NCBI GenBank assembly: GCA_044450345.1
Contig: JBIOIY010000034.1
Location: 1-35,393 of the forward strand
DNA length: 35,393 nucleotides
Direction of reading: 5' to 3'
Source of the DNA: Thermodesulfovibrionales bacterium
GTDB taxonomy: Bacteria; Nitrospirota; Thermodesulfovibrionia; Thermodesulfovibrionales; UBA6898
In this document: piece by piece, positions 6,417 to 35,141 of the stretch
How the letters are laid out: every line of letters starts with the position of its first letter
How positions within the stretch are numbered: the first letter of the stretch is position 1
Made by a program: the position numbers and the translations under genes
Notes under the pieces: generated by a model
The model's input: the letters and a program-made list of their open reading frames with translations, nothing else
The model's database searches: none
Told to the model about the DNA's origin: nothing

Positions 6417-6500
6417 AGGGGGGCCGCTTTATTCTAAAATCGTTCTCGTTGTCCATGACCGGGCGATTTTTTGCAGACCGTCGGTGACAAAAATAAGGTA

Positions 6501-11591: not shown

Positions 11592-11596
11592 CCACT

Positions 11597-13039: not shown

Positions 13040-13186
13040 CCATGCTCGCGGAGTGCATCACAAAAGAGGAGTGTAGGCATAATATCTGTTATCCTTATTA
13101 TGCGTCCCTTACATGGACAGGCGATTATGAGAAAGGAACTTCGGGAAAGTCGAAGAAGAGATAAATTCCGGAATGGGAGGTAACTA

Positions 13187-15103: not shown

Positions 15104-15149
15104 TGAAAAAGGCAATACAGCATGAACTGGAAACAATGAGCGCAAAGGC

Positions 15150-15821
15150 ATGAATTTCTTTAAGAGCACGGTAGGAAGAAAGATAGTGATGGCTGTCTCA
15201 GGTTTTTCGATGCTCGCTTTCATCGTGGTGCATCTCCTCGGGAATACCTCGATGTACGCGGGGCCTGACGGCATGAATGCCTATGCGCAGTTGCTGCACC
15301 GGTTCCCTCTCCTTATCTGGGTGTTCCGTCTGATACTGCTCGCGATGTTCTATGCACACGTCTTCTACGGCATTGCATTGACCCTTGAAAACAGAGCAGC
15401 AAAACCGCAGACTTACAAGGTGAAAAAAAATATCCGGGCCTCCTTTGCAGGAAAAAACATGATCTGGACAGGGGTTTTGATCGGGTTGTTCCTTGTCTAC
15501 CATCTGCTCCATTTCACGTTTCAGGTAACTGATCCCGGGATTTCGGCGAGCAGGCATCTTGATGCATTGGGCCGTCCTGATGTCTTCATGATGGTGGTGC
15601 TCAGCTTCCGTAAACTCGTTGTCTCTCTTGTGTACGTCGGCGCAATGGCCGCCCTTGGCCTGCATCTAGGCCACGCCATCCAGAGTCTGCCGCAGACAAT
15701 GGGACTGAACAATGACACCACCTTGCCGCTTTTCGTCGGGGGGGGGATACTTGTCGCGATACTCATTTCTCTCGGGTTTGCCGCATTTCCGATAGTTATT
15801 TTTACGGGTATTTTGAAATAG
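15150..15821 (+). CDS. sdhC: Succinate dehydrogenase/fumarate reductase cytochrome b subunit (single 5-TM anchor)
   Basis: STVGRKIVMAVSG, HLLGN and further TM histidines (HVFYG, HLLHF, HLGHA). Confidence 0.9.
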   Translation: MNFFKSTVGRKIVMAVSGFSMLAFIVVHLLGNTSMYAGPDGMNAYAQLLHRFPLLIWVFRLILLAMFYAHVFYGIALTLENRAAKPQTYKVKKNIRASFAGKNMIWTGVLIGLFLVYHLLHFTFQVTDPGISASRHLDALGRPDVFMMVVLSFRKLVVSLVYVGAMAALGLHLGHAIQSLPQTMGLNNDTTLPLFVGGGILVAILISLGFAAFPIVIFTGILK

Positions 15822-15875
15822 AGGTGAAAGGGCGATGATGCAAAAAGCGAAAGTAAGAAGCACAAAGAGGTTGCT

Positions 15876-17786: not shown

Positions 17787-18523
17787 TGGATCTTACACTC
17801 TATGTCTGGAGACAGGGCGGCCCGGACAAACCGGGTAGGCTGGAAGAATACCGGGCGAGCGAAATAAGCCCCGACATGTCCTTTCTCGAGATGCTTGATG
17901 TCGTCAATGAGGACCTGATCAAGACGGGCAAAGAGCCGATAGCGTTTGACCACGACTGCCGTGAGGGGATCTGCGGCACATGTTCCCAGGTCATAAACGG
18001 TGTGCCTCACGGGCCTCGGGAAAAGACGACCGTCTGCCAACTCCATATGAGGCACTTCAAGGACGGTGACACCCTTTACATCGAACCCTGGCGGGCGAGG
18101 GCCTTCCCCGTGATAAAGGACCTGATCGTAGACCGGAGCGCCCTCGAACGGATCATGCAGTCCGGCGGCTACGTCTCCGTCTATACGGGAGGCGTTCCAG
18201 ATGCCAATGCGGTCCTCATCCCGAAGGCCGATGCGGATATTGCGATGGACGCTGCGGAGTGCATCGGTTGCGGGGCGTGCGTTGCTGCATGTCCGAACGG
18301 TTCCGCAATGCTCTTCACGGCTGCGAAGGTGGCGCATCTGGCGAGGCTGCCCCAGGGGAAGGTCGAGGCTGCACGGCGTGTCTGTCTGATGACCGAGGAG
18401 ATGCTTCGGGAAGGGTTCGGCAATTGCGGCAATCATTACGAATGCCAGGCGGTATGCCCGAAAGGGATCAAGGTGCAGTTCATCGCGAAACTGAACAGGG
18501 AGTTTATAAAGGCCCGGTTATAA
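17786..18523 (+). CDS. sdhB: Succinate dehydrogenase/fumarate reductase Fe-S subunit
   Basis: [32 protein letters not shown]. Confidence 0.96.
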
Positions 18524-20741: not shown

Positions 20742-20897
20742 GGCGCCTTCACACGCAGGATTAGGAAACATATTCATTAAGTAGGGTTGATGTTTTTATA
20801 ACATAAGCGAAAATTAAGGTGAGGATGAAATGGGCCCGGAAGAAAGCGGGATACATTTTCCGGGCAGTTGCCAAATCTTTATAAACGGAGGTCAATC

Positions 20898-22163
20898 GTG
20901 TATAAAATATTCTTAAGGATTTCCATACTTGCTGCGGGAGTATTGGCATTTGTCGTTGCCGCCTCAGCGCAGACGTGCGTGGAATGTCATAAACAAATGA
21001 CTCCCCGGGCTGTCTCCGACTGGGAGATCAGCAAGCATGGCAAAAGCGGCATCGACTGTTCGGTTTGCCACGGTGATAAACACACATCAAGAGACGATGT
21101 GTCAAATGTACAGATTCCGACACCGGATACATGCGGGAAGTGTCACGACAAGCAGGTTGCGCAGTACAAAAGCGGTAAGCATGCTTTTGCGTGGGTGGCC
21201 ATGGAAGCTATGCCTACTATACACTGGCAACCTATGGCGTTGATCGAAGGCAAGAAAGGATGCGGAGGATGCCATAAAATAGGGATGAAGAGCGAAGAGG
21301 AGATAAAGGAGTTGAAAAAGAGCGGTCAGGTCTTTGGCAACGCTGCATGCGATTCATGTCACACGCGACACACCTTCTCTGTACAGGAGGCGAGGCAGCC
21401 GCAGGCTTGCCAGACATGCCATATGGGGTTTGACCACCCGCAATGGGAGATGTATTCCGGCTCCAAACACGGGGTAAGATTCTTGCTGAAACAAAATAAA
21501 ACGCTGCCGGAAGACGTCGCGGCGCCCACCTGCCAGACATGCCATATGCAGGAAGGTAATCATACGGTAAGGGCAGCATGGGGATTCCTTGCCGTCAGGC
21601 TTCCCATGCCTGATGACAAGCAGTGGGCTGATGACCGCTTAACGATCCTGCAGGCGCTCGGGGTGATTAACCCTGCCGGGAAACCGACTCCGCGCCTCGA
21701 AGTAGTGAAGGCAGCCGGCGTTGTCAGGCTGACACAGGAAGAGTGGCAGAAAGACCGTGACAAAATGATCACTACGTGCCATCAGTGCCATTCAATCAAT
21801 TTTGCGAAGGCCGAACTGGCAAAAGGTGACCAGATCATCAGGGCCGCTGACCATCTGATGGCCGAGGCAATCAGAATAATTGCCGGTCTGTATAACGACG
21901 GCATCCTTAAGCAGCCCAAGGCCTATTCATATCCATTCCCTGATCTTCTCACTTTTCATGATGCGCCGACTGTGATTGAACAGAAGCTCTTTGTTATGTT
22001 TCTGGAACACAGGATGAGGACATTCCAGGGTACGTTTCATGCCAATCCCGACTATGCGCTGTGGTATGGCTGGAGTGAGATGCAGAGAGATCTTACGGAA
22101 ATAAAAGAAGCGGCGGCTGACATGAGGGTGAAGGCTGAAAGGGGCGACAGAAAGGGAAAATAA
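20898..22163 (+). CDS. Octaheme cytochrome c, hydroxylamine oxidoreductase family (epsilon-HAO-like)
   Basis: Signal peptide; 8 CxxCH (CVECH, CSVCH, CGKCH, CGGCH, CDSCH, CQTCH twice, CHQCH); HAO signatures CHTRHTFS, CHMGFDHPQWEMYSGSKHG, HANPDYALWYGW; GTG start after GGAGG. Confidence 0.88.
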   Translation: MYKIFLRISILAAGVLAFVVAASAQTCVECHKQMTPRAVSDWEISKHGKSGIDCSVCHGDKHTSRDDVSNVQIPTPDTCGKCHDKQVAQYKSGKHAFAWVAMEAMPTIHWQPMALIEGKKGCGGCHKIGMKSEEEIKELKKSGQVFGNAACDSCHTRHTFSVQEARQPQACQTCHMGFDHPQWEMYSGSKHGVRFLLKQNKTLPEDVAAPTCQTCHMQEGNHTVRAAWGFLAVRLPMPDDKQWADDRLTILQALGVINPAGKPTPRLEVVKAAGVVRLTQEEWQKDRDKMITTCHQCHSINFAKAELAKGDQIIRAADHLMAEAIRIIAGLYNDGILKQPKAYSYPFPDLLTFHDAPTVIEQKLFVMFLEHRMRTFQGTFHANPDYALWYGWSEMQRDLTEIKEAAADMRVKAERGDRKGK

Positions 22164-22193: not shown

Positions 22194-23042
22194 CTAGATC
22201 CGATGGCATGCAAAACAGATCGACGGAAGGCGAAGTTTGGCATAAGCACCGGCCCCTTTCGCGGCCGCCTCATGTTGAATAACTCCTTTTTGATGGGGGT
22301 TGTGACAGGTGGAACAAGTGATTCGGTCTCTCGGCACAAGGGGGAGTATCACTAAGAGTCTCTCTTCGGCCTCGCTGATGTTACGCAGAGTCTCTGCCGA
22401 GGGTTTTACAAGAAAATGCTGTGAAAAAAAGGTATCCGGCATGGGGGGATGACATCTCCAGCAGAGAAAGCCGATATCAGCCCTGAATCTAACAGTTTCT
22501 GTCCAGTCGACCTCCGGGTCCGGTTTTGTGATATGGCATAGAAGGCATACCGGTCTGCCGTTCACCTTTTTGACATTTCCCGAGCTGTCGAGCATATCGT
22601 GCGGATTGATCTTTGCAAAATCTTCAAAAAAGTGGCATTGAAAACAGATGGTCCGACGGTCGGCATAAGGGCCGCCCCTCAGGAGTTTTGGGGCGCCTTT
22701 GTGTTCTGGTCCGCCATGGATTTCATGGCAGGTAAGACATCTTATCCTGCCTTCGTAGAGAGGCAATTGGCTGCCGGGTGGCTTTGAAGGACTAAAATTA
22801 ACAGGATGATGATTTTCTGCATAGTGGTGACAATACTCGCAGATAGAGGAAGGATCGGCCTTCAACACGAGTTGGGCGGGGTTCTCCTCCCCGGAGTCAT
22901 GACAGACATCGCAATTACTATGCGGGTTGGTATATGCCTCAACAGTCCTCTTCGGGGTCTGTTCGGGCCACAAAAGTGCTTGCATATTACAGGACGCGAG
23001 AACGGCCGTCAACAGGATTGAATATTTAAGAAAACGCAGCAT
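22194..23042 (-). CDS. Octaheme c-type cytochrome, predicted lipoprotein (paired-CxxCH type)
   Basis: Lipobox LASC; CDVCH, CEYCH, CLTCH, CFQCH, CLLCH, CWRCH, CSTCH, CFACH; NPH repeats. Confidence 0.88.
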   Translation of the reverse strand: MLRFLKYSILLTAVLASCNMQALLWPEQTPKRTVEAYTNPHSNCDVCHDSGEENPAQLVLKADPSSICEYCHHYAENHHPVNFSPSKPPGSQLPLYEGRIRCLTCHEIHGGPEHKGAPKLLRGGPYADRRTICFQCHFFEDFAKINPHDMLDSSGNVKKVNGRPVCLLCHITKPDPEVDWTETVRFRADIGFLCWRCHPPMPDTFFSQHFLVKPSAETLRNISEAEERLLVILPLVPRDRITCSTCHNPHQKGVIQHEAAAKGAGAYAKLRLPSICFACHRI

Positions 23043-23182: not shown

Positions 23183-23212
23183 TTTAAGTCTTTTTAAGTC
23201 TTTTTCTTGACA
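23183..23212 (+). promoter_or_regulatory. Tandem 10-bp direct repeat next to a -35 box ahead of the redox operon
   Basis: TTTAAGTCTT at 23183-23192 and 23193-23202; TTGACA at 23207-23212; -10 element weak. Confidence 0.5.
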
Positions 23213-23255
23213 AACCTTTCAGTATAGGGTATCCATTTGAAAGGAGGTATTCATT

Positions 23256-23987
23256 ATGGGCAGAGTGATAATACTATTTCTTGCCGTATTTTTTTATCTT
23301 CCCTCTGTTTCTTTTGGCTATGAGGCCGCCGGGGTCCAAAACGGAGGGAGTATTGAAGGACAGGTCATATTTGCTGGAGCTACGGTCCCGAAAGATGAAC
23401 CGCTCACGTTGAGCAGCGAAACGGAATACTGCGGAAAGACCCTCCCATCGGAAAGATATTTGATTAGTGCGGATAGAAACATAAGAAACGTCGTTGTGTC
23501 CCTGACAGGGATCAAGTCAGGAAAGGCCATTCCCACCGATGTCGTCACCGTCACAAATTCTAAATGTACCTTTGTACCCCATGTAAGCGTGGGGTTCAAA
23601 GGAAACAAGCTCATCATGAAGAACGACGATCCGGTTTTTCATACGTTCGATATACATGCTTCCTTAAACGGGAAAGAGCTCTATCACGTCGGTCTGCATG
23701 AGCAGGGTTCAGCGGTGACAAAAACACTTGCCAAAACAGGGCTCATGGAATTGACCTGTTATGTCCATCCATGGCAGCTTGCGTATGTCTACATCTTTGA
23801 TCATCCTTATGCGGCGGTTACCGATGAAAAGGGCGAGTTTGTTATCAAGGAAATCCCACCGGGAACATATACTGTCGAGGCCTGGCACGAGGCGCTGGGA
23901 ATAATAAAAATCCCGGACATAAAAGTAGAAAGCGGGAAAAAGAGCACCATAAGGCTGGAGTATACCAGCCGGATAAATCTTAACTAA
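23256..23987 (+). CDS. Periplasmic cupredoxin-domain protein (carboxypeptidase-regulatory-like flanks), paralog 1, Gln axial ligand
   Basis: Signal peptide; DPVFHT...C-YV-H-PW-Q; PYAAVTDEKGEF, PPGTYTVEAWHE. Confidence 0.85.
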   Translation: MGRVIILFLAVFFYLPSVSFGYEAAGVQNGGSIEGQVIFAGATVPKDEPLTLSSETEYCGKTLPSERYLISADRNIRNVVVSLTGIKSGKAIPTDVVTVTNSKCTFVPHVSVGFKGNKLIMKNDDPVFHTFDIHASLNGKELYHVGLHEQGSAVTKTLAKTGLMELTCYVHPWQLAYVYIFDHPYAAVTDEKGEFVIKEIPPGTYTVEAWHEALGIIKIPDIKVESGKKSTIRLEYTSRINLN

Positions 23988-24000
23988 AAGGAGGAGTATT

Positions 24001-24714
24001 ATGCACAAGGCAATTTTGTTTGTGGCTGTCATGGCAGTAATGTTTTCCTTTTCCTCAATTTCCTTTGCGTATGAGACAGTGGACGTAAAAAACGGCGGAA
24101 GCATTGAGGGGGTGGTGGAGTTTACCGGGGGCAGTGTCCCGAAGGACCCGATGCTAACCCTGAGTTCCGAGCAAAAGTTCTGCGGGAAAAGCCTCCCTGC
24201 GGAAAAGTACGTGATCAAGGACAAGAAGATTGCGAACGTGGTTGTGTATATAGAAGATATCAAGGCCGGCAAGGCGATGCCGAATGAACCGGTCACATTG
24301 ACAAACTTGAAATGTGCCTTTGTCCCCCACGTTGCCGTGGGGTTTAAAGGGAACAAGTTCATCGAAAAAAATGATGACCCCATTTTTCATAATATCCATA
24401 CCTATATAAACAATAAGACTATGTATAACATCGGACTTCCTGAAAAAGGGTCGTCGGTCACAAAGCCTTTGACGAAGACAGGCATCATCGAAGTCACCTG
24501 TGACAGCCATCCGTGGATGCACGGGTTCCTCTATGTTTCTGATAATCCTTACGCCGCGGTGACCAATGAAAAGGGCGAGTTTTCGATCAAGAATGTTCCC
24601 CCCGGTACCTATACGGTCGAGGCGTGGCATGAGGCCCTCGGAAAGGTAAAGGTCGCAAATATCAAGGTCGAAAGCGGGAAGCCCAGCAAGACCAAACTGG
24701 ATTACAAGAAATAG
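24001..24714 (+). CDS. Periplasmic cupredoxin-domain protein, paralog 2, canonical Met axial ligand
   Basis: Signal peptide; DPIFHN...C-DS-H-PW-M; colinear paralog of the upstream gene. Confidence 0.87.
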   Translation: MHKAILFVAVMAVMFSFSSISFAYETVDVKNGGSIEGVVEFTGGSVPKDPMLTLSSEQKFCGKSLPAEKYVIKDKKIANVVVYIEDIKAGKAMPNEPVTLTNLKCAFVPHVAVGFKGNKFIEKNDDPIFHNIHTYINNKTMYNIGLPEKGSSVTKPLTKTGIIEVTCDSHPWMHGFLYVSDNPYAAVTNEKGEFSIKNVPPGTYTVEAWHEALGKVKVANIKVESGKPSKTKLDYKK

Positions 24715-24746
24715 ATCTGAAATATTAAAGATTAAGGAGGATGCAG

Positions 24747-26045
24747 ATGCAAAAAGTTTTACTATTTTTAGGGGGTCTGATATTGTTTTTAATGACATTC
24801 CTTTTGCCTCAGGAGTCCCGGGCTATTCCTTCCTTTGCCCGCCAGGTACAGAAGCCTTGCACAGCCTGTCATACCATTTGGGGGAACCTGAATCAAGCCG
24901 GCCGGCAGTTCAAGGTAAAGGCATACACAGATGTCTCTCAGGAATGGCAGATGATCAACAAGGATAAGTTGAATTTGCTTTACGTCTTTCCGGTTTCTGC
25001 AAGGGTCGTTTTTTATCCTTACACAAGGGAACAAGATCAGGTAGCCGGGATAAACAGCAATTCAACCCAGCTCAACACTGTTGATCTGTTTATCGGCAGC
25101 AGGGTGTTTGATTACGCCGGGATATTCGGAAATATCGAGGCAACAAATGTAACCTCAGGCGCGATGGCTTTCGATATCCCTACTATTAAAGCGGCCTTTC
25201 AGTATCCCATCGGGGAAGGAAACACCTTAGGCCTTGTATTGTTTAAAGGCTTGGCAACCTCTGCAGACCCCTTTAACAGTTTGGGGGGAAGGGACAGGGG
25301 CCTGACCTTCGACGCTGAGAGCGTCCCGTGGATATTGTCAAAGGGATGGACCTTCGACTACTGGAGCGGAGGAAACCTCGGAATGGTGGCCCACGGTTAC
25401 TTTTTGGGGAATCGTCTCTACGCCGCTGTCGGCGCGATGAGAGGCGGTAATTCTTCTGATGCGGGTTTCGGTTTCAACAACGATAATAACGGCGACCCCT
25501 TTGACGGGTACTTCCGTCTGGCATGGGACCAGAAGCTTACAAACGGAGCGGTTACCTTCGGCGGCGCATGGTACACCGGGAAGCAGAGACCTGTTGATCC
25601 GACCACCGGGGCCGCGTTGTTCGAGTCCAACGTCAGTAGAGGTTATCTCGATGCCTCCCTTGAGCAAACTTTTGGCGAAGACCACCTTTTTGAGGCCCAG
25701 GCCCTCTATGGTTACGGCAAGGAAACGAATACCTTTGGCGGGGATGAAACGAGAAAGTTTAACGGGTTTCTCGTGGAAGGAAGCTATTTCTACCAGAGGA
25801 CGTATGGTCTGATTGCATCATATAACATGATAAATATGCAGGGAGTTTTACCTACGGATATTTCGTCTGCCGGGACCGGGACCGATGAAAACAAGAAGAA
25901 CACCTGGGTCGTGGCCCTTAACTACCTTCCTTGGCTTAATACGAAGGTCGCGCTCCAGTATGCACAGACAAAGACTAAATTTGCAGGCGGTCAGCCTGAT
26001 GAAACCGACAAAGTATTCAGGGTAGTATTCGACATATTGTTCTAA
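24747..26045 (+). CDS. cyc2: Cyc2-type outer-membrane monoheme cytochrome c-porin fusion
   Basis: Signal peptide, then A|IPSFARQVQKPCTACHTIWGNLNQAGRQFKVKAY (Cyc2 motif AxPxFARQ-x4-CxxCH...L...GRxFK..GY), followed by beta-strand-rich sequence ending FDILF. Second ATG chosen for RBS spacing. Confidence 0.85.
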   Translation: MQKVLLFLGGLILFLMTFLLPQESRAIPSFARQVQKPCTACHTIWGNLNQAGRQFKVKAYTDVSQEWQMINKDKLNLLYVFPVSARVVFYPYTREQDQVAGINSNSTQLNTVDLFIGSRVFDYAGIFGNIEATNVTSGAMAFDIPTIKAAFQYPIGEGNTLGLVLFKGLATSADPFNSLGGRDRGLTFDAESVPWILSKGWTFDYWSGGNLGMVAHGYFLGNRLYAAVGAMRGGNSSDAGFGFNNDNNGDPFDGYFRLAWDQKLTNGAVTFGGAWYTGKQRPVDPTTGAALFESNVSRGYLDASLEQTFGEDHLFEAQALYGYGKETNTFGGDETRKFNGFLVEGSYFYQRTYGLIASYNMINMQGVLPTDISSAGTGTDENKKNTWVVALNYLPWLNTKVALQYAQTKTKFAGGQPDETDKVFRVVFDILF

Positions 26046-26055
26046 ATTATGGACG

Positions 26056-26081
26056 GCCCGGGGATTGAGTAATCCCCGGGC
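26056..26081 (+). other. Intercistronic 11-bp perfect hairpin without U-tail
   Basis: GCCCGGGGATT-GAGT-AATCCCCGGGC between cyc2 and the bd-like gene. Confidence 0.75.
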
Positions 26082-26110
26082 TCCCATTGTCCGGAAGAGG
26101 AGATGATGTA

Positions 26111-27853
26111 ATGGCAGAAGCAGGTGTAGGGAAGGGTATAGCAAAGGGCATAATTAAATTCACTGTTATCCTTGGAGCAGGGTTCCTGTTCCTGGCGGTC
26201 CTCAAAAGGATGCTTCCTGCTGCGACCCAGGACGGCTACCGGTTTTTTCCGCTGATCGGCAGCAGGGACTGGATATGGATAGTGGCCCAGCTGCACCTTA
26301 ATTTTGCGGCCTTTGTCCTGGGCGTCCCGATATTTGCCGTGACCATGGAATTCATAGGCTGGAGGAAGGCCGATGAGAGACTCGACAGGATCGCCTATGA
26401 TTTCACAAAGCTCTTTACCCTTGCCTACACCCTGACCGCTATCATGGGGTCGATCTTCCTTGTCAGCCTGCCGGTGCTCTATCCGAAGTTTATCGATTAT
26501 ATGATGAAGATACTCGGACCGACGTGGTGGTTATATCTTATCGTGATGTACGGCGAAGTTTTGGTCTGTTATTATTATTTTTATTCATGGAAAAAGATGA
26601 AAGACAGAAAAGGGTTCCACGTCTTTCTCGGAGTGTTATTGAATGTCTTCGGGGCGCTGCTCCTTCTGATCACGAGCACATGGGTCGGCTTTATGACTAC
26701 CCCCGCTGGTGTGAATGCGGAGGGAGAGCTGGTGAGCAGATGGGGGGCGATACACACTCATATGTGGCTTCCCCTTACGCTTCACCGCTTTGTCGCAAAC
26801 ATTGTCTTCGGCGCCGGAATTGCGGCCGCATATGCGGCCTTCAGGTTTATCACCGCAAAGACGGAAGAAGAAAAGGCTTATTACGACTGGATGGGCTATA
26901 CGTCCGCGATCATATCGATCGGCGTTTCTCTTCTTCTGCCCGGCGTCGGCTATCTTTTGGGTGTTGAAATTTATTCCTTCAACGAGCAGATGGGCATCCA
27001 GCTCATGGGCGGTTTTTTTGCGTGGCTCTGGGTCATGCAGGCGATCCTCATAGGCGCCATCCTTTTCTTCATAAACTACTACCTCTGGATTTCGCTCCAT
27101 AAGATGCCGGGCGGCGAGAGGTACTTCCCCTACGTAAAATTCCTGTTCCTGGTCCTTCTTGTCGGATATGCGGTCTGGCTTACCCCCCACGACATCGCCC
27201 TGAGCCTTGAAGAGGCGAGGAGGACCGGCGCATACCACCCGGCGCTTGGCAAGCTGGGCGTCATGGCGGCAAAAAACACGGCGGTCATCCTCTCTTACCT
27301 TGCTACGTTCCTGAGTTTCGCCATCTTCCGGATGAGCAACAAGGAACCCTCCGTGGCGTGGGCGAAGGCGGGGCATATCATCAGGGCGGCTATCATTGTA
27401 GTCTCATCCGCGGGCGTGCTGGCGCTCGGCATTTTCAGCTATTACGTGTCTGCTGCGGTAAGGGTGAAGGTCCTTTCTCCTATCCAGTTCAGTCTGTTCA
27501 TCCTTGCGATAATTGCATTGTTCATCCTTGATTATTTTATGTATAAAGGGGCCCGAGTGATAGGAGAGCCGCGGTGGGGACAGATGCCCGAGAGGTCTCA
27601 GTATGCATTGATCGCCATCACAGTGACTTTTACGTGGCTTATGGGCATGCTCGGATACATGAGGGCCGGTGCGCGGCAATACTGGCATGTCTACGGCGTC
27701 ATGATGAACACGAGTCCCGACGCCTACCTTCCCACCCACGGCGCGGCCTCGATCATTGTCACGATAGTCACGTTACTTTTCTTCGTCCTCGTCTCTCTTG
27801 TCTTTTGGTCCATCATGAAACTTGAGAAGGTTATCGGGGAAAGGAGGGGCTGA
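26111..27853 (+). CDS. Cytochrome bd-like oxidase subunit I (CydA-like, Nitrospira/anammox type, no adjacent CydB)
   Basis: Polytopic; AQLHLNFAAFVLG (H19-like), GFMTTP, LHRFVANIVFG (H186-like), WLTPH, YHP, MGMLGYMRAGARQYWHVYG (divergent GRQPW); ATG after GAGGAG. Confidence 0.85.
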   Translation: MAEAGVGKGIAKGIIKFTVILGAGFLFLAVLKRMLPAATQDGYRFFPLIGSRDWIWIVAQLHLNFAAFVLGVPIFAVTMEFIGWRKADERLDRIAYDFTKLFTLAYTLTAIMGSIFLVSLPVLYPKFIDYMMKILGPTWWLYLIVMYGEVLVCYYYFYSWKKMKDRKGFHVFLGVLLNVFGALLLLITSTWVGFMTTPAGVNAEGELVSRWGAIHTHMWLPLTLHRFVANIVFGAGIAAAYAAFRFITAKTEEEKAYYDWMGYTSAIISIGVSLLLPGVGYLLGVEIYSFNEQMGIQLMGGFFAWLWVMQAILIGAILFFINYYLWISLHKMPGGERYFPYVKFLFLVLLVGYAVWLTPHDIALSLEEARRTGAYHPALGKLGVMAAKNTAVILSYLATFLSFAIFRMSNKEPSVAWAKAGHIIRAAIIVVSSAGVLALGIFSYYVSAAVRVKVLSPIQFSLFILAIIALFILDYFMYKGARVIGEPRWGQMPERSQYALIAITVTFTWLMGMLGYMRAGARQYWHVYGVMMNTSPDAYLPTHGAASIIVTIVTLLFFVLVSLVFWSIMKLEKVIGERRG

Positions 27854-28368
27854 TGAAAGCAGGAGTCCTGAAGCTTGCTGTCATTGTAATAGGTCTGAAT
27901 CTCATCTTTGCATACATCGGCCTTGAATTTCTCCCCCAGTCCGAATCCAGGCCGCCGAAGGTGATCAAGATAGCAGAAGGCATCTCACAGGAAGATCTTG
28001 TTAATGTCGGTGAGCAGATTGTTTTCGGAAAAGGGCAGTGTATGGTATGTCATCCGGCGAAGGCGGAGTCGGGAATGAGGGCCCCGGCCATGTCCGCCAT
28101 AGGAGCGGAAATGGAAAAGGAGGCCAAAGAGCGGGGCATCACTCCAGAGGAGCACGTTTTTGAGGCCCTCGTCAATCCATCCAAATACATCGTGAAGGGG
28201 TTCGAAGATATGATGTCCCCCGTGCACACTCCACCGACCTCTTTGACCGGAGGGGAAATCATCGCAGTGTCCGCCTATCTTCAGAGCCAGGGAGGGAAGG
28301 TGACGGTTTCCTTTCCGGGGTCTCTGCCGGTACTGAAAGACCAGATAACGAAGGCAGGAGGGAAATAA
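27853..28368 (+). CDS. Membrane-anchored monoheme cytochrome c
   Basis: N-terminal TM, CMVCH, distal MMSP; TGATG coupling to the bd-like gene. Confidence 0.9.
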   Translation: MKAGVLKLAVIVIGLNLIFAYIGLEFLPQSESRPPKVIKIAEGISQEDLVNVGEQIVFGKGQCMVCHPAKAESGMRAPAMSAIGAEMEKEAKERGITPEEHVFEALVNPSKYIVKGFEDMMSPVHTPPTSLTGGEIIAVSAYLQSQGGKVTVSFPGSLPVLKDQITKAGGK

Positions 28369-28369
28369 T

Positions 28370-29173
28370 ATGCAATTTATATTCCCTGTAGTCACATTGA
28401 TCGGTTTGGCGATAGCGATAACCTCCGCCCTGAAAAAGTCCCCTTTCTTTAATTTCATAGGCATACTTGTCTTTATTTACGGAGGCATAAAGAGCCTGTC
28501 GCTGGTGATGCCGCCTCTTCCGGGGCAGGTTGTCAACATGTTCATGATCATGTCCTTCTTTTCGTTTCTCATCTATTTCTCCATCCATGATGAAACGCTG
28601 AAGGCCTTCCTTGAGCCGATGAGGGCCGTGCTCGCCGATGACGACAAAAAAATTCTGAGGGTCATCATCGTCTACCTCGTTATCCCTCTTCTTGCCGCGT
28701 ATGGTACCTATGTCAAAGTGATGCCGACCTTCGAGCCTCCGGTTTCGGCGAGGATCACTCACCCCGAACCCCCCTCTGAAATGGATTTCAAGGGCAACCC
28801 CATTAAGATATTGGGACTCGAAAACCCCTTGAGGAAAGACGCGGCGAACCTGTCGAAGAATATCGGGGAAGGGAAAGAGATATATTACAAGAACTGTTTC
28901 TTCTGCCACGGCGATGACCTCGACGGCAAAGGGAACTTCGCCCAGGCCTTCAACCCCCCGCCGCCTGCGTTCATAGGTATCGATACGATCGCACAACTGC
29001 CTGAATCCTATGTTTTCTGGCGTGTTGCAAAGGGGTGGAGGGGGCTTCCCGCGGGTGCGCATCCATGGGATTCTGCGATGCCCTCCTTCGAGGACTTTCT
29101 CGAAGAAGATGCGATATGGAAGGTGGTCCTCTTTATTTACGATGCCTCGGGCAATAAGCCCAGGACGTGGTGA
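28370..29173 (+). CDS. Multi-TM membrane monoheme cytochrome c
   Basis: 3-4 TM helices, then NCFFCHG and WDSAMP (distal Met). Confidence 0.9.
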   Translation: MQFIFPVVTLIGLAIAITSALKKSPFFNFIGILVFIYGGIKSLSLVMPPLPGQVVNMFMIMSFFSFLIYFSIHDETLKAFLEPMRAVLADDDKKILRVIIVYLVIPLLAAYGTYVKVMPTFEPPVSARITHPEPPSEMDFKGNPIKILGLENPLRKDAANLSKNIGEGKEIYYKNCFFCHGDDLDGKGNFAQAFNPPPPAFIGIDTIAQLPESYVFWRVAKGWRGLPAGAHPWDSAMPSFEDFLEEDAIWKVVLFIYDASGNKPRTW

Positions 29174-29198
29174 GCGTATGCGGAAGGGAGATTTTATA

Positions 29199-30620
29199 AT
29201 GCGGCTTCTCATGACCCTTGTGTTATTGCTGCTGTTGCCGGTCCACGCGTTTTCGGAAGATAAGGGAAAGATACTCTACGACAAGTGGTGCGCCCAGTGC
29301 CACGGCGAAAAAGGGGACGGCAAAGGCCCGGCTGCGGACTTCGTATTCCCGAAGCCGAGGGATTTTACGAAGGGCACGTACAAATTCCACTCGACCGCAT
29401 CCGGTGAACCGGTCCTGGATTCGGACATCATCCGGTCGATAAGAAACGGAAACCCCGGCACCTCGATGCCGCCCTGGACGCGGTTCAGCGACGATGACGT
29501 GAAAGCGATTGTCGCTTATCTGAAGAAGTTTTCACCCGATACCTTTGAGACGAAGGGCACCCCCTTAAAGATAGGCAAACCGCCGGGCAGTAAAGAGAAA
29601 CTGATAGCGCTCGGGAAAGAGATGTATGAAAAAGCGAAGTGCTGGGAATGTCACGGCAAGGCGGGAAGGGGCGACGGCGAGAAGGGATGGCAGGAAAAAT
29701 TCAAGGACGATTGGGGCAACAGGGCTTATCCGGCCGACCAGACCACCCCCTGGGAGTACAGAAACGGCAGTGACTTAAAGGACCTCTTTGTGACGATTAC
29801 CGCGGGCATCGACGGCACGCCGATGACCTCTTACGGGGACACGGTTTCCGAGGAGAAGAGATGGGCCCTCGCATATTATGTGAAGTCGCAGCAGCAGATA
29901 AGAAAACTCGGTCTTGCGTTGCGGGTGAAAAAAGTGACCGCTATCCCTTCTTCGACGGATGATCCGGCCTGGAACACTGTCGACTACCTCGATCTTCCGA
30001 TGGCCGGCCAGATAATCTTCGACCCCCGGGATTTCACGGCGCTCATTACAAATGCGCGAGTCAGAGGGGTATACACCGGTTCGGACCTGGCGGTTATGGT
30101 CGAATGGACAGGCAAAAAACCGAACAAGGGCGACGACGGGCATCCTCCCGATGCTGCTCGGATACAGTTCCCCTCAAAATCTTCGGAAGGCGCGGAGCCA
30201 TTTTTCCTGATGGGTGACAAGAAGCTGGCGGTCAACATATGGCAGTGGAAGGCGTCTGATGACCTCGCTGTCGAATTCAACGCACAGGGACCATCGGCCG
30301 TTACGCAGCAGGAAAAACAGGATTTACAAGTCGTTCCGTCCTATAGAGAGGGTCTGTACAGGATCATGTTCAAAAGGGCCTTGCAGACAGGGGACAAGGA
30401 CGATGCCGCTTTCGAGGTCGGAAAGTTCACACCCTTTGCAGTAACTCTCTATGACGGAAGAAATGACGAGGAGAACAACAAAGGAGCGGTATCGGCATGG
30501 TACTTCATGGAACTGGAGCCGCCTACACCCGTTAAGGTGTATGTGTTGCCGCCAATAGCGTTCATCGCTTTCCTCGGTATCGGTCTCGTCCTTCGTAAGA
30601 GCGTAAAGAGGAAAGGATGA
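29199..30620 (+). CDS. Diheme cytochrome c fused to an EbdC/DMSO-reductase-type heme b domain, C-terminal TM (NxrC-like)
   Basis: Signal peptide; CAQCH...PGTSMP and CWECH...DGTPM; DPAW, DAARIQFP, FLMGD, VNIWQWKA, YDGRNDE...NKG; C-terminal hydrophobic helix. Start reset to MRLLMTL. Confidence 0.87.
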   Translation: MRLLMTLVLLLLLPVHAFSEDKGKILYDKWCAQCHGEKGDGKGPAADFVFPKPRDFTKGTYKFHSTASGEPVLDSDIIRSIRNGNPGTSMPPWTRFSDDDVKAIVAYLKKFSPDTFETKGTPLKIGKPPGSKEKLIALGKEMYEKAKCWECHGKAGRGDGEKGWQEKFKDDWGNRAYPADQTTPWEYRNGSDLKDLFVTITAGIDGTPMTSYGDTVSEEKRWALAYYVKSQQQIRKLGLALRVKKVTAIPSSTDDPAWNTVDYLDLPMAGQIIFDPRDFTALITNARVRGVYTGSDLAVMVEWTGKKPNKGDDGHPPDAARIQFPSKSSEGAEPFFLMGDKKLAVNIWQWKASDDLAVEFNAQGPSAVTQQEKQDLQVVPSYREGLYRIMFKRALQTGDKDDAAFEVGKFTPFAVTLYDGRNDEENNKGAVSAWYFMELEPPTPVKVYVLPPIAFIAFLGIGLVLRKSVKRKG

Positions 30621-30630
30621 TTTTGAATCA

Positions 30631-31632
30631 ATGAATATGTACAAGAAGATATTGGTCCCGGTAGACAACTCGAAATATTCACAGTACTGTACGGACTTGG
30701 GAATCACACTTGCCGGACGGTTCGGCAGCGATCTCACAGGCAGCCACGTATACAGCGCCGGGCTGCACGACAAGAGGTTCAGGGACATGGAGGTCGGCCT
30801 GCCAGGACACTACAAGGAGGAAGAGAGGCTGAGGAGATCGAGGAAGGTCCATGATTCTCTCATAGGGGACGGGCTCCGGCTGATTTCCGACGCCTATCTC
30901 GACTCTTTTAAGCGCGGATGCACGGAAGCGGGAATACAGTTCAGCTGCAAGCTCATGGAGGGTAAAAACTGGCTTGAGATCCTGCGGGACGTCAGAAGCA
31001 GCGGCTACGACCTGGTGATCATGGGCGTCCTCGGGCTCGGCGCGGTAAACGGAAATCTCATCGGCGGCGTATGCGAACGAGTGGCAAGAAAGGCAAGAAC
31101 GGACGTACTTGCGGTAAAAAACGGCAGTCCCCTTGGTAAGAGGATCGTTGTTGGGATCGACGGAAGCGCGGAGGGTTTCTCGGCCTTCGGAAAGGCCGTG
31201 ATATTAGGCAAGCTCTTTGACCTGAAGGTGGAGGCGGTCTCGGTCTATGACCCTCATTTTCACCGGAGGGCATTTCAGGCCCTTGTCGGGGTCCTCTCCG
31301 GCGAGGCCGGGAAGATGTTTAAGTTCACGGAGCAGGAGAAGCTCCACGATGAAATCATAGACGACGGCCTCGGTAAGATATACCAGGGCCATCTGGACCG
31401 GGCCTATCTTGCCGGCCGCAAGGAGGGGATGGAGGTGAAAACCGTCCTTCTCGCCGGAAAGGCATACTCCGAGATATGCAGATATCTCGAAAAAGACCCG
31501 CCGTCCCTCCTCGTGGTGAGCAGGTTTGGGGCACACCAGACCGAGGAAATGGACATCGGCAATACTGCGGAAAATCTCCTCCGGCTCGCACCGTGCAGCG
31601 TCCTTCTGAGCTGCGGGGCCGGGACGGATTAG
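30631..31632 (+). CDS. Tandem-domain universal stress protein
   Basis: YKKILVPVDNS, DLVIMGVLGLG..IGGVCERV; second domain IVVGIDGS...IGNTAENLLRLAPCSVL. Confidence 0.92.
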   Translation: MNMYKKILVPVDNSKYSQYCTDLGITLAGRFGSDLTGSHVYSAGLHDKRFRDMEVGLPGHYKEEERLRRSRKVHDSLIGDGLRLISDAYLDSFKRGCTEAGIQFSCKLMEGKNWLEILRDVRSSGYDLVIMGVLGLGAVNGNLIGGVCERVARKARTDVLAVKNGSPLGKRIVVGIDGSAEGFSAFGKAVILGKLFDLKVEAVSVYDPHFHRRAFQALVGVLSGEAGKMFKFTEQEKLHDEIIDDGLGKIYQGHLDRAYLAGRKEGMEVKTVLLAGKAYSEICRYLEKDPPSLLVVSRFGAHQTEEMDIGNTAENLLRLAPCSVLLSCGAGTD

Positions 31633-31638
31633 TCTTCC

Positions 31639-32913
31639 ATGGAAGATACGCTCTCAATTATTTCCTGGAATGTGACCGGAAAATGCAACCTCAGCTGCAG
31701 ACACTGCTATCTCCCGGCCCACATGGACGGAGGCGGCCGCGATCATCATGAATTACATACCAAAGAGGCCCTCCGGGTCATCGATCAGATCGCCCTCGTA
31801 AATCCTGAGGTGATGCTGATACTCTCAGGCGGTGAGCCGCTCCTGAGAGATGACATCTTCGATCTGGCGGCGCATGCATCGGGCAAGGGGATGATGGTCG
31901 TTCTGGGCTCAAACGGACTCCTTATCGATAAAAGGGTCGCCTCATCGCTGCTCCGCTGCGGCGTTACCGGCATAAGTATAAGCCTCGATTCGGTCGATCC
32001 GAAAATTCATGATGAAGTGCGATCTTTTGACGGGGCATGGCAACGCGCTGTCGGGGCCGTCTCCGCATGCCGGGGCGAGGGGCTCCCTGTACAGATCAAT
32101 GCTGTTGTCACACGAAAGAACTACCGGACAATACCCGAACTTATCGAATATGCTCACGCGCTCGGCGCAAAAGTCTTCAGCCCCTTTTTCCTTGTATGTA
32201 CAGGCAAGGGCGAGGAGCTGACCGACATTACACCCGAGCAATACGAAGAGGTCCTTTCACGCGTCGCCGAAGCGCAGGGGAAATACGGCGACATGATGAT
32301 TAGAACGAGATGCGCGCCCACATTCAGAAGAATGCTCTATCAGCGTAATCCCGATTCGCCGCTTCTGAAGATGGATACAGGCCGATGTCTTGCCGGCCGG
32401 CGCTACTGCAGGATCACCCCTCAAGGGGATGTGACCCCCTGTCCCTATATGCCACTGTCGCTGGGGAATGTAAAGGAGACGGATTTCAATGACATCTGGA
32501 GGCGCTCCGAGGTCCTCATTTCGCTGAGAAGCCCGCAGCTGAAAGGCAAATGTAAGCTCTGTGAATTCCGTCTGCTATGCGGGGGCTGCAGGGCTAGGGC
32601 ATATGCGCTTAGAAATGATTATCTTGAAGAAGACCCCTGGTGTGCATTTATGCCGGGCGGCGGAGACGTCATTAGACCTCCTTCCTTTGTTTCTGCATCA
32701 TGCTGCAAAGCATCTCCAGGGCCGATGCCTTTATGGACCGAAGCGGCCGAGGAACGCCTAAAGAGGGTCCCTTTTTTTGTCCGGTCCATGGTCAGAGCGG
32801 CTGCTGAAAAATATGCCGTGGAGAAAGGCTGTGAGGAAATTACTCCGGAGATGATGGAGGAGTTGAAACAAAAAGCAGGGATGGGAGGAATGGGCGGACA
32901 TGGACATGGATAG
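31639..32913 (+). CDS. Radical SAM/SPASM enzyme, NirJ/AhbC/AhbD-like, with a C-terminal BchB-type PCP_red domain
   Basis: WNVTGKCNLSCRHCY, SGGEPL, SPASM C..G...C..PCPY...KCKLC...CGGCRARAY...DPWC; WTEAAEERLKRVPFFVR; tail MGGMGGHGHG. Confidence 0.88.
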   Translation: MEDTLSIISWNVTGKCNLSCRHCYLPAHMDGGGRDHHELHTKEALRVIDQIALVNPEVMLILSGGEPLLRDDIFDLAAHASGKGMMVVLGSNGLLIDKRVASSLLRCGVTGISISLDSVDPKIHDEVRSFDGAWQRAVGAVSACRGEGLPVQINAVVTRKNYRTIPELIEYAHALGAKVFSPFFLVCTGKGEELTDITPEQYEEVLSRVAEAQGKYGDMMIRTRCAPTFRRMLYQRNPDSPLLKMDTGRCLAGRRYCRITPQGDVTPCPYMPLSLGNVKETDFNDIWRRSEVLISLRSPQLKGKCKLCEFRLLCGGCRARAYALRNDYLEEDPWCAFMPGGGDVIRPPSFVSASCCKASPGPMPLWTEAAEERLKRVPFFVRSMVRAAAEKYAVEKGCEEITPEMMEELKQKAGMGGMGGHGHG

Positions 32914-33160
32914 GGAATTAACGGAAAAGGAAAAAAAATTCTTAAGCGGGGCGGCAAAGCGCAAGAGCCTTTTTTTAATATCCAGCGTTGCTACGGTCGT
33001 TGTTGCCGTGGCATTCCTCGTGTATCACGGGCTTGTCACAAAAGATATGAACGGGTCCAGGTTCGTCATCATCCTACTGCTGCTGCTCTCGGGCCGTTCA
33101 TATTTGAGACTCTATAAGAGCGCCGTCATATTCAGCAAACTTAAGAACACGGACGGTTAA
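32906..33160 (+). CDS. Small 2-TM membrane protein
   Basis: Two hydrophobic helices; overlaps the upstream stop; start at 32900 or 32906. Confidence 0.7.
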   Translation: MDRELTEKEKKFLSGAAKRKSLFLISSVATVVVAVAFLVYHGLVTKDMNGSRFVIILLLLLSGRSYLRLYKSAVIFSKLKNTDG

Positions 33161-33164
33161 GGAA

Positions 33165-33845
33165 ATGGAAACGAGACTGACATCGGGAAGACTCCCTGTG
33201 GCGTGCCTCGACTGGCTTGCTTCATCGAGACTCAAATTTTTGGAGGACATGGTCGGGGGAAGACCGATGCGGTATTTTTCCGCCCATCTGCCGGTGATGG
33301 CAACATGGCGGCAGGACGAAGATGAGACGTTCCCCGTCAATATGACCGTGAAAGGGATAGGTCTTATTCCGAGGACGGACCTCCTTATGGATTATATCGA
33401 TATCTTTGAAGGGATGATTGCGGAGGTCAGGTCGGTGCCGTGGGAGGAGAGTCTCGGAAAGAGGGTCGGTGTTATGTCAAGGCTTTATACCGATACTAAT
33501 AACTTCGAGCCAGCCATGCTCGGCGGCCTCGAGATATTCCAGGGTAAAGCGCATGAAAACATGAGAGAAAACCCCCATGCAAGCCTGCTTTATGTGGGGA
33601 TGGCATACGGCCCGGAAGGCATGCAGTACATAAGTTTTCAGGTCAACGGGACCGTCGAGATCCTCGAAAAAGACAGTCCCCATTACAGATTCCTTCTTGC
33701 CTCAAGAAAGCTCTTTGAGTTCGATAGATTTCATCTCTTTCAGCCCGACTATCCGTTCGGATATCTCCTGCGAGTGAGTGAAGTAAGGGATAAATCTCCG
33801 TGGTCAAGGGCGGCGAAGAGCTCTCAACCAGGAGAGCAACAGTAA
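33165..33845 (+). CDS. Pyridoxamine-5'-phosphate-oxidase-like split-barrel protein
   Basis: HLPVMAT, NMTVKGIG, GLEIF..KAHENMRENPHASLLY, SFQVNGTVEI. Confidence 0.65.
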   Translation: METRLTSGRLPVACLDWLASSRLKFLEDMVGGRPMRYFSAHLPVMATWRQDEDETFPVNMTVKGIGLIPRTDLLMDYIDIFEGMIAEVRSVPWEESLGKRVGVMSRLYTDTNNFEPAMLGGLEIFQGKAHENMRENPHASLLYVGMAYGPEGMQYISFQVNGTVEILEKDSPHYRFLLASRKLFEFDRFHLFQPDYPFGYLLRVSEVRDKSPWSRAAKSSQPGEQQ

Positions 33846-33956
33846 AAACTTCGCTCATGATCCCCGCAACGACTTGAATGCAGATATCTGAGCGCTATAA
33901 TGAAATCATTACGGCATTATGATAAAGAAAATATCGGGGATGTGAAAGGGGTTTCA

Positions 33957-35141
33957 ATGAAGACAATGACGAGCATATTAGTTCAAACCGCCGGGATTCT
34001 TCTCTTGCTGATTTCCTTCGTCTCTGCCCAGGGCCTTCCCGAGGAGCCTACACGAGGGGGGCGATTGTTTGTTGCCAAAGGATGCGCAAAGTGCCATGCC
34101 TTTAAGGGAACAGGAAGCAGTATAGGTCCTGATCTAAGCAAGATAGATTTAGGCGATACACAACTAGACCTGGCGGCGCAGATTTGGAACCACACCCCTG
34201 CAATGATTACGGAGATGGAGCAGTCAGGAATCACAGGGGCTGTCCTGACCGGTCAGGAATTTATTGAAATTACTTCTTATCTTTATTTTCTCAGTTTTTT
34301 TGACGAGCCTGGAGATCCTTTGACGGGGGAAAATGTATTCGAGCAGAAGGGATGCTCGTCATGCCACGCCTCATCAGTCGGGAAAAAAGGATCGGGGCCT
34401 GAGTTGCATTCCTTTCCGCGCAATCTGTCGCCCGTCTTCTTAGGCGAGGCGATCTGGAACCATAGTATACCTATGATCGCACTTATGGCCCAAATAGGAA
34501 TGAAATGGCCCAATTTCGAAGGCTCAGAAATGATGGACATATTAGAATATATAAAGACGCAGGCAAAGGGACCAGCAGGGCCTGCTTTCTTCAGAGCGGG
34601 TAATCCTAAAAAGGGCCGGGTTGTCTACGATAGCAGGAAATGTAACGAATGTCACTCAATTTATGGCGAAGGAGCAAAGGGAGGCATCGATCTGGCAACG
34701 AGGGCCAGGAAGTTCTATACAAGTCTAACCCGGATCGTTTCGAGCATGTGGAACAAAGGGCCTGTCGTCATAGTGAGGATGGCACAGACACAGTGCTGCG
34801 GTCCTAAATTCACATCTGGCGAGATGGCGGACCTGCTTGCCTATCTTTATTTCCTGCATTACCTTGACGAGCCTGGGGACGCGGTGAACGGGAAAAGACT
34901 ATTTTCTGACTTGGCCTGTGCGGGGTGTCACACTAAAGGGGGGCAAAAAAACGCGCCATTGCAATATATCGATCTCTCCAAATATCAAAACGCGGCCAAC
35001 ACTGAAATCGTAGCTGGTATCTGGAACCACACCATTCCGATGAGAAAGGCTGTGGCTAAGAAGGGCATTCCCTGGCCTAAACTAAGAAAAGGAGAGATGG
35101 CCGACCTTCTCGAATTTATTCGCAATCCTCAGGAGATCTAA
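33957..35141 (+). CDS. Periplasmic tetraheme cytochrome c made of four class-I-like repeats
   Basis: Signal peptide; CAKCH, CSSCH, CNECH, CAGCH, each followed by a WN(H/K) motif and a helix; start at MKTMT inferred. Confidence 0.88.
   Translation: MKTMTSILVQTAGILLLLISFVSAQGLPEEPTRGGRLFVAKGCAKCHAFKGTGSSIGPDLSKIDLGDTQLDLAAQIWNHTPAMITEMEQSGITGAVLTGQEFIEITSYLYFLSFFDEPGDPLTGENVFEQKGCSSCHASSVGKKGSGPELHSFPRNLSPVFLGEAIWNHSIPMIALMAQIGMKWPNFEGSEMMDILEYIKTQAKGPAGPAFFRAGNPKKGRVVYDSRKCNECHSIYGEGAKGGIDLATRARKFYTSLTRIVSSMWNKGPVVIVRMAQTQCCGPKFTSGEMADLLAYLYFLHYLDEPGDAVNGKRLFSDLACAGCHTKGGQKNAPLQYIDLSKYQNAANTEIVAGIWNHTIPMRKAVAKKGIPWPKLRKGEMADLLEFIRNPQEI

Follow-up and report, generated by a model that had tools for sequence, protein, structure and literature searches.

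The stretch of DNA analysed here, which we call the window, measures 35,393 nt and is the whole of one contig (C34) from the 3.19-Mb, 86-contig genome, 91% complete, of a Thermodesulfovibrionales bacterium. Towards its end, a set of genes on the + strand joins an outer-membrane cytochrome-porin of the Cyc2 family and two cupredoxins to a cytochrome bd-like oxidase homologue (the CydA-like protein) and several cytochromes. Eleven of these genes, from the cupredoxin to a split-barrel protein, are found in other genomes in an unchanged order. We lean, with some reserve, towards a reading in which electrons from an extracellular donor would pass through Cyc2, a cupredoxin and the cytochromes to the bd-like oxidase, all encoded in one laterally mobile operon.

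A first-pass annotation of the locus, made from the sequence, had reported 12 co-directional and mostly tightly spaced open reading frames (ORFs) between positions 23256 and 35141. All 12 are present on the + strand, and from their coordinates neighbouring genes are separated or overlap by −14 to +65 nt. The labels proposed for them all agree with Pfam and NCBIfam matches and with the counts of CXXCH motifs and transmembrane (TM) segments.

A divergent member of the Cyc2 family

Cyc2 proteins are recognized by a signal peptide, a single CXXCH, the motif AXPXFAR[Q/K][T/Y], which is unique to the family, and a length of at least 365 aa (Keffer et al., 2021). A P-x-L sequence four residues after CXXCH is also described, though not as unique to Cyc2, and the porin is a 16-strand barrel whose structural matches are OprO and OprP (Keffer et al., 2021). 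The third gene of the operon (24741–26045, + strand) encodes a fused monohaem cytochrome-porin of 434 aa with these features in large part. The start given for it in the first-pass annotation, 24747, corresponds to Met3 of the ORF that opens at 24741; the ORF itself stands. A hydrophobic segment at residues 6–24, modelled as a helix at 3–20, points to a signal peptide. There is one CXXCH only, CTACH at residues 40–44, and the family motif reads A28-I-P-S-F-A-R-Q-V36, followed by three residues, CTACH and T-I-W-G-N-L. An AlphaFold model built with 46 relatives has a mean predicted local distance difference test (pLDDT) score of 79.7 and 16 beta strands; the N-terminal haem segment precedes the barrel and is poorly modelled. 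The best fold match in the PDB is the phosphate porin OprP (2o4v, E 1.7e-12), with OprO (4rjx) at rank 9. Both the length and the barrel are therefore those of a Cyc2 porin, and the question of whether this protein would model as a beta-barrel at all, on which the first-pass annotation had staked its Cyc2 call, is answered by the 16 strands.

A profile of the clade was searched against 1.84 billion cluster representatives and gave 2655 matches at E≤0.001, 538 at 1e-10 and 24 at 1e-30. Since so few of the 2655 matches reach the last threshold, the clade is small and divergent. Among the best 150 matches, 124 are full-length proteins, and every one of these has exactly one CXXCH; the strict published motif with the same spacing is found in 60, a relaxed form in 107 and P-x-L in 101. 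Neither NCBIfam nor Pfam returned a family match for the protein, and the ESM Atlas gave unnamed clusters only, the nearest named family being Porin_O_P (20% of one cluster). Judged from the barrel model, the OprP-like fold, the motif and the clade profile, the window protein belongs, as had been called, to the Cyc2 family, and within it to a small and divergent clade; Fe(II) oxidation is its most likely predicted function. A different Cyc2 from Thermodesulfovibrionia oxidised Fe(II) when it was expressed in E. coli, and the same work describes a "Nitrospirae UBA9159 protein" as a Cluster 2-type Cyc2 (PMC13647500, 2026). A UBA9159 protein, which may or may not be the published one, is 70% identical to the window Cyc2.

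The cupredoxins and their predicted docking to Cyc2

Directly before the Cyc2 gene are two genes for cupredoxins, cup1 (23256–23987, + strand) and cup2 (24001–24714, + strand), whose products are 60% identical to one another. The first is secreted and has three domains, among them a type-1 cupredoxin core and, at the C terminus, one resembling CarboxypepD_reg; it carries Gln at the position of the axial ligand (CYVHPWQ), a variant also present in five other genomes. The second has the ligand set H130, C167, H170 and M173. In 31 homologues taken from the fetched loci, the first three of these (cup2 numbering) never vary, and at least 90% keep M173. The only Pfam domain reported in the cupredoxins is the C-terminal CarboxypepD_reg, and NCBIfam gave no match. 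A profile search against the PDB was more telling, with matches to the blue copper protein 5fc9 (3.2e-8), to amicyanin (1.9e-6) and to the cupredoxin domain of NirK. The AlphaFold2 model of cup2 (pLDDT 94.1) matches in Foldseek the NirK cupredoxin domain, the Nitrosopumilus maritimus cupredoxin 5fc9, amicyanin and plastocyanin; rusticyanin is not among the Foldseek matches listed. Ligands, fold and PDB profile matches are thus in accord with the earlier assignment of genes 1 and 2 as cupredoxins.

Modelling of the Cyc2-cupredoxin pair had been named as a check, and it gave a predicted interface at the haem and copper sites. The complex was predicted from Cyc2 residues 25–434 with haem and cup2 residues 23–237. 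The median ipSAE interface score was 0.67 (runs of 0.67, 0.08 and 0.74), against 0.00 for the best control; at least 76% of contacts agree between runs and the pLDDT of the partners is at least 87. The score mark used is reached by 116 of 157 solved complexes and by 2 of 215 mismatched pairs, a calibration that is only rough here, with our own alignments being used and haem riding along. The predicted contacts run from Cyc2 residues 36–69, which include the haem motif, to residues 127–131 and 166–172 of cup2, the loops that bear H130, C167 and H170, while on the barrel cup2 touches six short inter-strand turns. In porins, the short inter-strand turns face the periplasm. The model supports, without showing, that cup2 binds Cyc2 with the haem and copper sites facing each other.

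The bd-like oxidase and its cytochromes

The gene after Cyc2 (26087–27853, + strand) encodes a CydA homologue of 588 aa. Its start is likelier to be the ATG at 26111, because relatives align from residue 8 or 9. Homology to CydA covers half of the family profile: PF01654 matches residues 65–295 only (1.9e-14, profile positions 8–237 of 418), the alignment with Geobacillus CydA (5doq) extends over residues 54–221, and the second half of CydA is unmatched. NCBIfam gave no match for this protein. In the aligned part, H70 falls on a haem-ligand His and E157 on Glu108. Seven residues (H70, H178, H233, H368, H384, H534 and E157) are invariant in 24 aligned homologues, and there are about 13–14 hydrophobic segments or TM helices. 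The protein is 40–43% identical to copies that occur, usually three to a genome, in 74 of the 75 genomes of a large family of the phylum (f29).

Three genes for cytochromes follow on the + strand. The first (27853–28368) encodes a membrane-anchored monohaem cytochrome c of 171 aa (c171), identified by Pfam and by motif and TM counts, and the second (28370–29173) a four-TM monohaem cytochrome c of 267 aa (c267; PF13442, 1.7e-8; TM and CXXCH counts). The third (29178–30620) encodes a protein in which a dihaem c is joined to an EbdC-like (EB_dh) haem-b domain and which is anchored near its C terminus by a TM segment at residues 448–466 (PF00034 twice; PF09459, 6.1e-15; TIGR03477, 1.4e-24); its ORF opens at 29010, and the start that resembles a signal peptide is at 29178. 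In all examined loci with sequence there, the c171 gene comes directly after the CydA-like gene, and the two monohaem cytochromes and the dihaem-c/haem-b subunit follow the CydA-like gene in every complete locus. The order CydA-like, c171, c267, EbdC-like is also that of a locus of the f29 type (L025).

A preprint by Murali et al. describes OR-N bd-like oxidases that lack the quinol site and have 10–14 TM helices. Likewise, the bd-like protein of the clusters of periplasmic nitrite oxidoreductase (NXR) has 14 helices, lacks a Q-loop and is accompanied by cupredoxin and cytochrome c (Lucker et al., 2013). This nxr-linked module accompanies periplasmic NXR in Nitrospina, Nitrospira and Kuenenia and includes mono- and dihaem cytochromes c (Lucker et al., 2013). 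A bd-like oxidase cluster named TO_1 has been described in Manganitrophaceae (PMC9040806). As cytochrome genes follow the CydA-like gene, the donor operon expected of an OR-N enzyme is in place, and by sequence the oxidase is of the Nitrospira-type OR-N bd-like form, predicted to lack the quinol site and to have the usual cytochrome partners. The half-length homology, the TM count and these partners agree with the bd-like call of the first-pass annotation, and the parallel that it drew with Nitrospira and the anammox nxr cluster is borne out by the gene order at L025 and by the published description (Lucker et al., 2013).

Conservation and probable lateral transfer

Close orthologues of the window Cyc2 are found in 21 other genomes at 46–79% identity. 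Where sequence upstream of Cyc2 is available, in 20 of 20 related loci, the gene directly before it is one for a cupredoxin. The bd-like gene comes directly after Cyc2 in 14 of 19 judgeable genomes (two more contigs end too soon), a count that takes in L037, with its oxidase genes in fragments, and L045, with Cyc2 split over three frames. The genes for a universal stress protein (USP) and for a radical SAM enzyme with a 2-TM protein (and the split-barrel protein) then follow in 10 of 11 loci with enough sequence. Since the order recurs in many species-level genomes, it is not due to chance; the joint conservation for which the first-pass annotation had asked is seen in the 14 genomes where the oxidase follows Cyc2.

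The bd-like module also exists without Cyc2. Eight such loci were found, with a bd-like module of 71–77% identity and no radical SAM gene, and in all eight a cupredoxin of the same family stands directly before the bd-like gene. The cupredoxin is thus what the two modules have in common, standing next to Cyc2 in 20 of 20 loci and next to the bd-like gene in 8 of 8. Several of the Cyc2-less loci (L017, L019 and L020; also L015, L018, L021 and L023) are preceded by genes for NosD, an ABC ATPase, an ABC-2 permease, a transglutaminase-like and a thioredoxin-like protein, and the same loci hold a second cupredoxin homologue without the Cys-His-Met ligands. Signs of decay were seen at L045 (the same as L011), in its Cyc2 gene split over three frames, and at L037, where the matches to CydA-like, c171, USP, radical SAM and split-barrel proteins are short fragments.

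In metagenome-assembled genomes (MAGs) of Gemmatimonadota (L053–L084), proteins with only the N-terminal haem motif of Cyc2 are encoded about 2 kb from a cupredoxin of the same family (CN[VI]HPWM), and at L053 a dihaem cytochrome c lies between the two. The linkage of Cyc2 and cupredoxin thus extends beyond Nitrospirota. Among the matches listed, no Nitrospira-like genome has Cyc2 and bd-like genes on one contig.

The distribution within the host's own family is patchy, as neither the Cyc2 nor the CydA-like gene was found in any of 14 genomes of that family, one of them from the same genus. The CydA-like protein shares 84–88% identity with copies from another class of the phylum, while the housekeeping protein PurD is 60% identical to those of the same other-class genomes and 83% within the genus. 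These patterns are consistent with lateral transfer of the operon. A complete cluster from cupredoxin to radical SAM, with a CydA-like protein of 79% identity, is present in a MAG labelled Thermodesulfobacteriota (L032), which could reflect either lateral transfer or mis-binning.

The proposed chain and its alternatives

In the chain that we favour, Cyc2 in the outer membrane would be reduced one electron at a time by a dissolved donor outside the cell, most likely Fe(II), and would pass the electrons to cup2, and perhaps also to cup1, bound at the barrel's periplasmic opening. From there the OR-N oxidase would be supplied by the copper protein together with both membrane-anchored monohaem cytochromes c and the dihaem-c/haem-b subunit, and it would reduce a high-potential acceptor; O2 is the most likely one, and NO or a nitrite-derived species is possible. 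Use of O2 is plausible because the genome also encodes a caa3-type cluster and a canonical cytochrome bd. Gene content, folds, motifs and conserved order are observations, and the interface is a prediction; from these we infer the direction of the chain, its donor and acceptor, the conservation of energy and the cofactor role discussed below. This chain is the most economical reading because the cupredoxin is common to both modules, the docking model places it at the haem of Cyc2, and the nxr clusters provide a precedent.

A number of observations weigh against it. In 5 of the 19 judgeable genomes, no bd-like gene occurs within 7.9–10 kb downstream of Cyc2, so the Cyc2-cupredoxin and oxidase modules can work apart, and co-transcription of the operon is suggested by gene spacing only, all 20 entries listed in a search for RNA runs being sets of DNA contigs. 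The Cyc2 protein matches eight of the nine positions of AXPXFAR[Q/K][T/Y], with V36 in place of T/Y; in its clade the last position is V, L or I in 45 of 46 members, and Y replaces F in 30 of 46. Its residue 48 is Gly (G48-N-L) where the Pro of the haem-stabilising P-x-L would stand, a Pro kept in 42 of the 46 relatives, including the 79%-identical copy at L027. One of the three docking runs fell to 0.08. On the oxidase side, Tyr150 occupies the position of the proton-channel Glu101 of Geobacillus CydA. The role of the nxr-linked bd-like protein was called "enigmatic", and a complex-III-like alternative was offered for it (Lucker et al., 2013); in the excerpts of the literature available, no demonstration of O2 reduction by any OR-N enzyme was found. 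The DsrAB and NrfA of the host belong to the repertoire of an anaerobe.

Of the other explanations, one agrees with the chain as far as the inner membrane and departs from it in denying that the bd-like complex is a terminal oxidase: electrons would be transferred uphill to quinone, and a separate caa3 or bd enzyme would take the downhill share. Such enzymes are present in the genome, the Geobacillus Glu101 is not kept, such a role was proposed for the 14-TM bd-like protein of nxr clusters (Lucker et al., 2013), and electron bifurcation by a related complex is discussed for Manganitrophaceae (PMC9040806). Against this, the quinol site is absent from OR-N and bd-like proteins (Murali et al.; Lucker et al.), the haem-ligand H70 and Glu157 of the half that reduces O2 are invariant in the 24 sequences, and Pfam finds no quinone-handling subunit in the operon, so that we regard uphill transfer as distinctly unlikely. 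It also seems unlikely, if a little less remote, that the system is protective and not respiratory, an O2-sensitive anaerobe with DsrAB using Fe2+ at the envelope to scavenge O2, NO or peroxide without conserving energy. The DsrAB and NrfA of the host, the conserved USP of the operon and the absence of both genes from all 14 genomes of the family would fit scavenging; eleven conserved genes and an entry in the outer membrane are a large investment for it, and homologous bd-like clusters occur in 74 of the 75 genomes of f29, whose size and content appear to fit aerobic Nitrospira-like nitrite oxidisers.

The operon might also be two independent modules that happen to adjoin, a Cyc2-cupredoxin pair and a cupredoxin-dependent bd-like oxidase fed by other periplasmic donors. 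Each half does occur alone, cupredoxin with Cyc2 in five genomes (L012 and L013 are further cases) and cupredoxin with the bd-like gene in eight loci. The gaps from cupredoxin through Cyc2 to the oxidase gene are however 13–65 nt and show terminator-like sites no more often than chance would give, the order is kept in 14 genomes of which one is binned to another phylum, and the cupredoxin that the modules share is also the predicted docking partner of Cyc2, which together make mere adjacency very unlikely in our judgement. Last, the flow could be outward, with respiratory electrons exported through Cyc2 to Mn(IV) or Fe(III), as the two octahaem cytochrome genes adjoining the operon might suggest. 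These genes adjoin the operon elsewhere only at L027, no quinol-oxidising entry is apparent, and blue-copper carriers usually have high potentials, which counts against export; we consider it the most far-fetched of these explanations.

If the favoured chain, from extracellular donor through Cyc2 and cupredoxin to the bd-like oxidase, is taken further, the cluster may be a portable electron sink. A blue-copper carrier, cytochromes c, an OR-N oxidase and a radical-SAM haem-tailoring set would then plug into NXR in nitrite oxidisers or into Cyc2 here, with Cyc2 handing electrons directly to the docked cupredoxin; acquired laterally, the set would let anaerobic Nitrospirota that carry DsrAB respire on Fe(II) in solution, using trace amounts of O2 or NO. 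We put this forward tentatively, as a possibility that we think more doubtful than not. Were it true, it would name both the long-sought periplasmic acceptor of a neutrophile-type Cyc2 and a physiological donor of bd-like oxidases. Two questions are touched by the locus in any case. To that of the periplasmic electron acceptor of Cyc2 it brings a cupredoxin whose gene is the invariable neighbour and whose product is predicted to dock at the haem, and to that of the role and donors of bd-like oxidases without a quinol site in Nitrospirota it brings a cupredoxin and cytochromes c attached to the oxidase, as in the nxr clusters. The linkage gives a complete, testable chain, and it suggests that some sulphur-cycling Thermodesulfovibrionia-like bacteria may oxidise iron.

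Accessory genes and genomic surroundings

Upstream of cup1, a putative promoter and ribosome-binding region (23207–23255, + strand) can be read from the letters, with TTGACA at 23207–23212 and AGGAGG 8 nt before the ATG; a promoter scan of the region before cup1 listed none. At the other end of the operon, the cytochrome genes are followed on the + strand by a tandem USP gene (30631–31632), in which PF00582 matches two stretches (9.6e-36), and which is conserved in the cluster. Next is a radical SAM/SPASM enzyme that belongs to the NirJ2/AhbD group, whose members act on tetrapyrrole side chains, and that ends in a PCP_red domain (31639–32913, + strand; TIGR04055, TIGR04545, PF08369). It scores 324.2 bits against TIGR04055 (NirJ2) and 293.1 against TIGR04545 (AhbD), both below the equivalog cut-off of 500. 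It is an extra paralogue, two others being encoded on contig C1 (38% and 32% identity), and in the loci examined its gene occurs only with the Cyc2-bearing form of the cluster.

An 86-aa small membrane protein with one clear and one short hydrophobic segment comes next (32900–33160, + strand), for which neither Pfam nor NCBIfam gave a family; its gene is kept after the radical SAM gene in related loci. The PNPOx-like split-barrel protein of 226 aa (33165–33845, + strand) matches PF01243 below the cut-off (3.8e-4), and its nearest Atlas clusters are named PNPOx family with a score of 0.94; the gene is kept at L027, L035, L036 and L039 and is a fragment at L037. The radical SAM, small membrane and split-barrel proteins probably tailor or insert a tetrapyrrole cofactor, and the USP probably regulates.

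The last of the 12 genes, for a tetrahaem cytochrome c with four CXXCH (33900–35141, + strand), had been counted as a member of the system. It was rejected as a part of the operon, being absent downstream in all seven related loci, and is a local add-on; it has a promoter-like site of its own at 33874–33901 and a 57% paralogue on contig C2, and the contig ends 252 bp past it. On the upstream side are two genes for octahaem c-type cytochromes at 20868–22163 (+) and 22194–23042 (−), with eight CXXCH each and matches to Pfam multihaem families. The first has a 49% paralogue on contig C12, and the pair adjoins the operon elsewhere only in the closest relative, that of L027. Further upstream, a PAS-containing sigma-54 activator (6471–8207) precedes a stretch at 9460–18523 with methylcitrate-cycle-like genes (a PEP-mutase/ICL-family protein, a citrate-synthase-family protein, PrpD and an acyl-CoA synthetase) and then a three-gene succinate dehydrogenase/fumarate reductase set.

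Elsewhere, the genome encodes DsrAB, NrfA, a caa3-type oxidase cluster and a canonical cytochrome bd (contigs C70, C59, C1 and C6). The caa3-type cluster on C70 has SCO1-like, COX1, COX3, haem-c COX2 and CtaB genes and includes the only full COX1 of the genome, there being none in the window. No NarG was found above the cut-off in the host genome. The host looks like an anaerobe that meets oxygen.

Comparison with known systems

The locus had been proposed as a candidate new respiratory system. It is not wholly new; instead, two known modules are joined in it, Cyc2 with cupredoxin, and cupredoxin with cytochromes c and an OR-N oxidase. The second is known from the nxr clusters of Nitrospira, Nitrospina and Kuenenia and from TO_1 of Manganitrophaceae (PMC9040806), a paper that, in the excerpts available, treats both Cyc2 and a bd-like oxidase, separately. 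Full-text literature searches returned no description of a linkage of Cyc2, bd-like oxidase and cupredoxin, and for Cyc2 with cupredoxin in Nitrospirota no passage on the linkage was found in those of the papers that were checked. Papers that pair a bd-like oxidase with a cupredoxin concern nxr clusters. The first-pass annotation had likewise known of no characterization of the combination. As far as we have searched, it is the wiring that has no precedent in print, the parts themselves being known.

In the rus operon of Acidithiobacillus ferrooxidans, the gene order is cyc2-cyc1-orf-coxBACD-rus. The operon of the window resembles it in bringing together Cyc2 for the outer membrane, a blue-copper protein for the periplasm, a dihaem cytochrome c and a membrane-bound terminal oxidase. 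The oxidase there is of the aa3 type, whose genes the window does not hold, while here it is OR-N bd-like with an EbdC-like haem-b subunit; the cupredoxin here is a three-domain protein that resembles amicyanin and NirK-type domains most closely; and the host is no known acidophile. The rus-operon logic that had been suggested is supported by the conserved synteny together with the predicted Cyc2-cupredoxin interface. In the neutrophilic pathway of Zetaproteobacteria and Gallionellaceae, electrons pass from Cyc2 to Cyc1 or other carriers and on to a cbb3 oxidase. Both have a monohaem Cyc2 with a 16-strand barrel and the family motif, which is near-canonical in the window, whereas a copper protein as the proposed carrier, a bd-like enzyme as the sink and a divergent Cyc2 clade set the window apart.

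The radical SAM enzyme shares the radical SAM and SPASM architecture of AhbD and NirJ enzymes, which belong to alternative haem and haem d1 synthesis, and has NirJ2 and AhbD as its best NCBIfam matches; it differs in falling below the equivalog cut-offs and in its extra PCP_red domain. The closest comparison for the oxidase is with the TO_1 and nxr bd-like clusters, which share the cupredoxin partners and, as at L025, the succession of a CydA-like gene, two monohaem cytochromes c of which the second is a membrane protein, and an EbdC-like haem-b protein; the 14 TM helices described for them compare with about 13–14 predicted here. In the window, by contrast, the Cyc2 gene is inserted between the cupredoxin and oxidase genes, no NXR is present, and identity to the Nitrospira-type copies is only 40–43%. 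The EbdC-like subunit here has an added dihaem c, as L025 matches only its residues 267–472.

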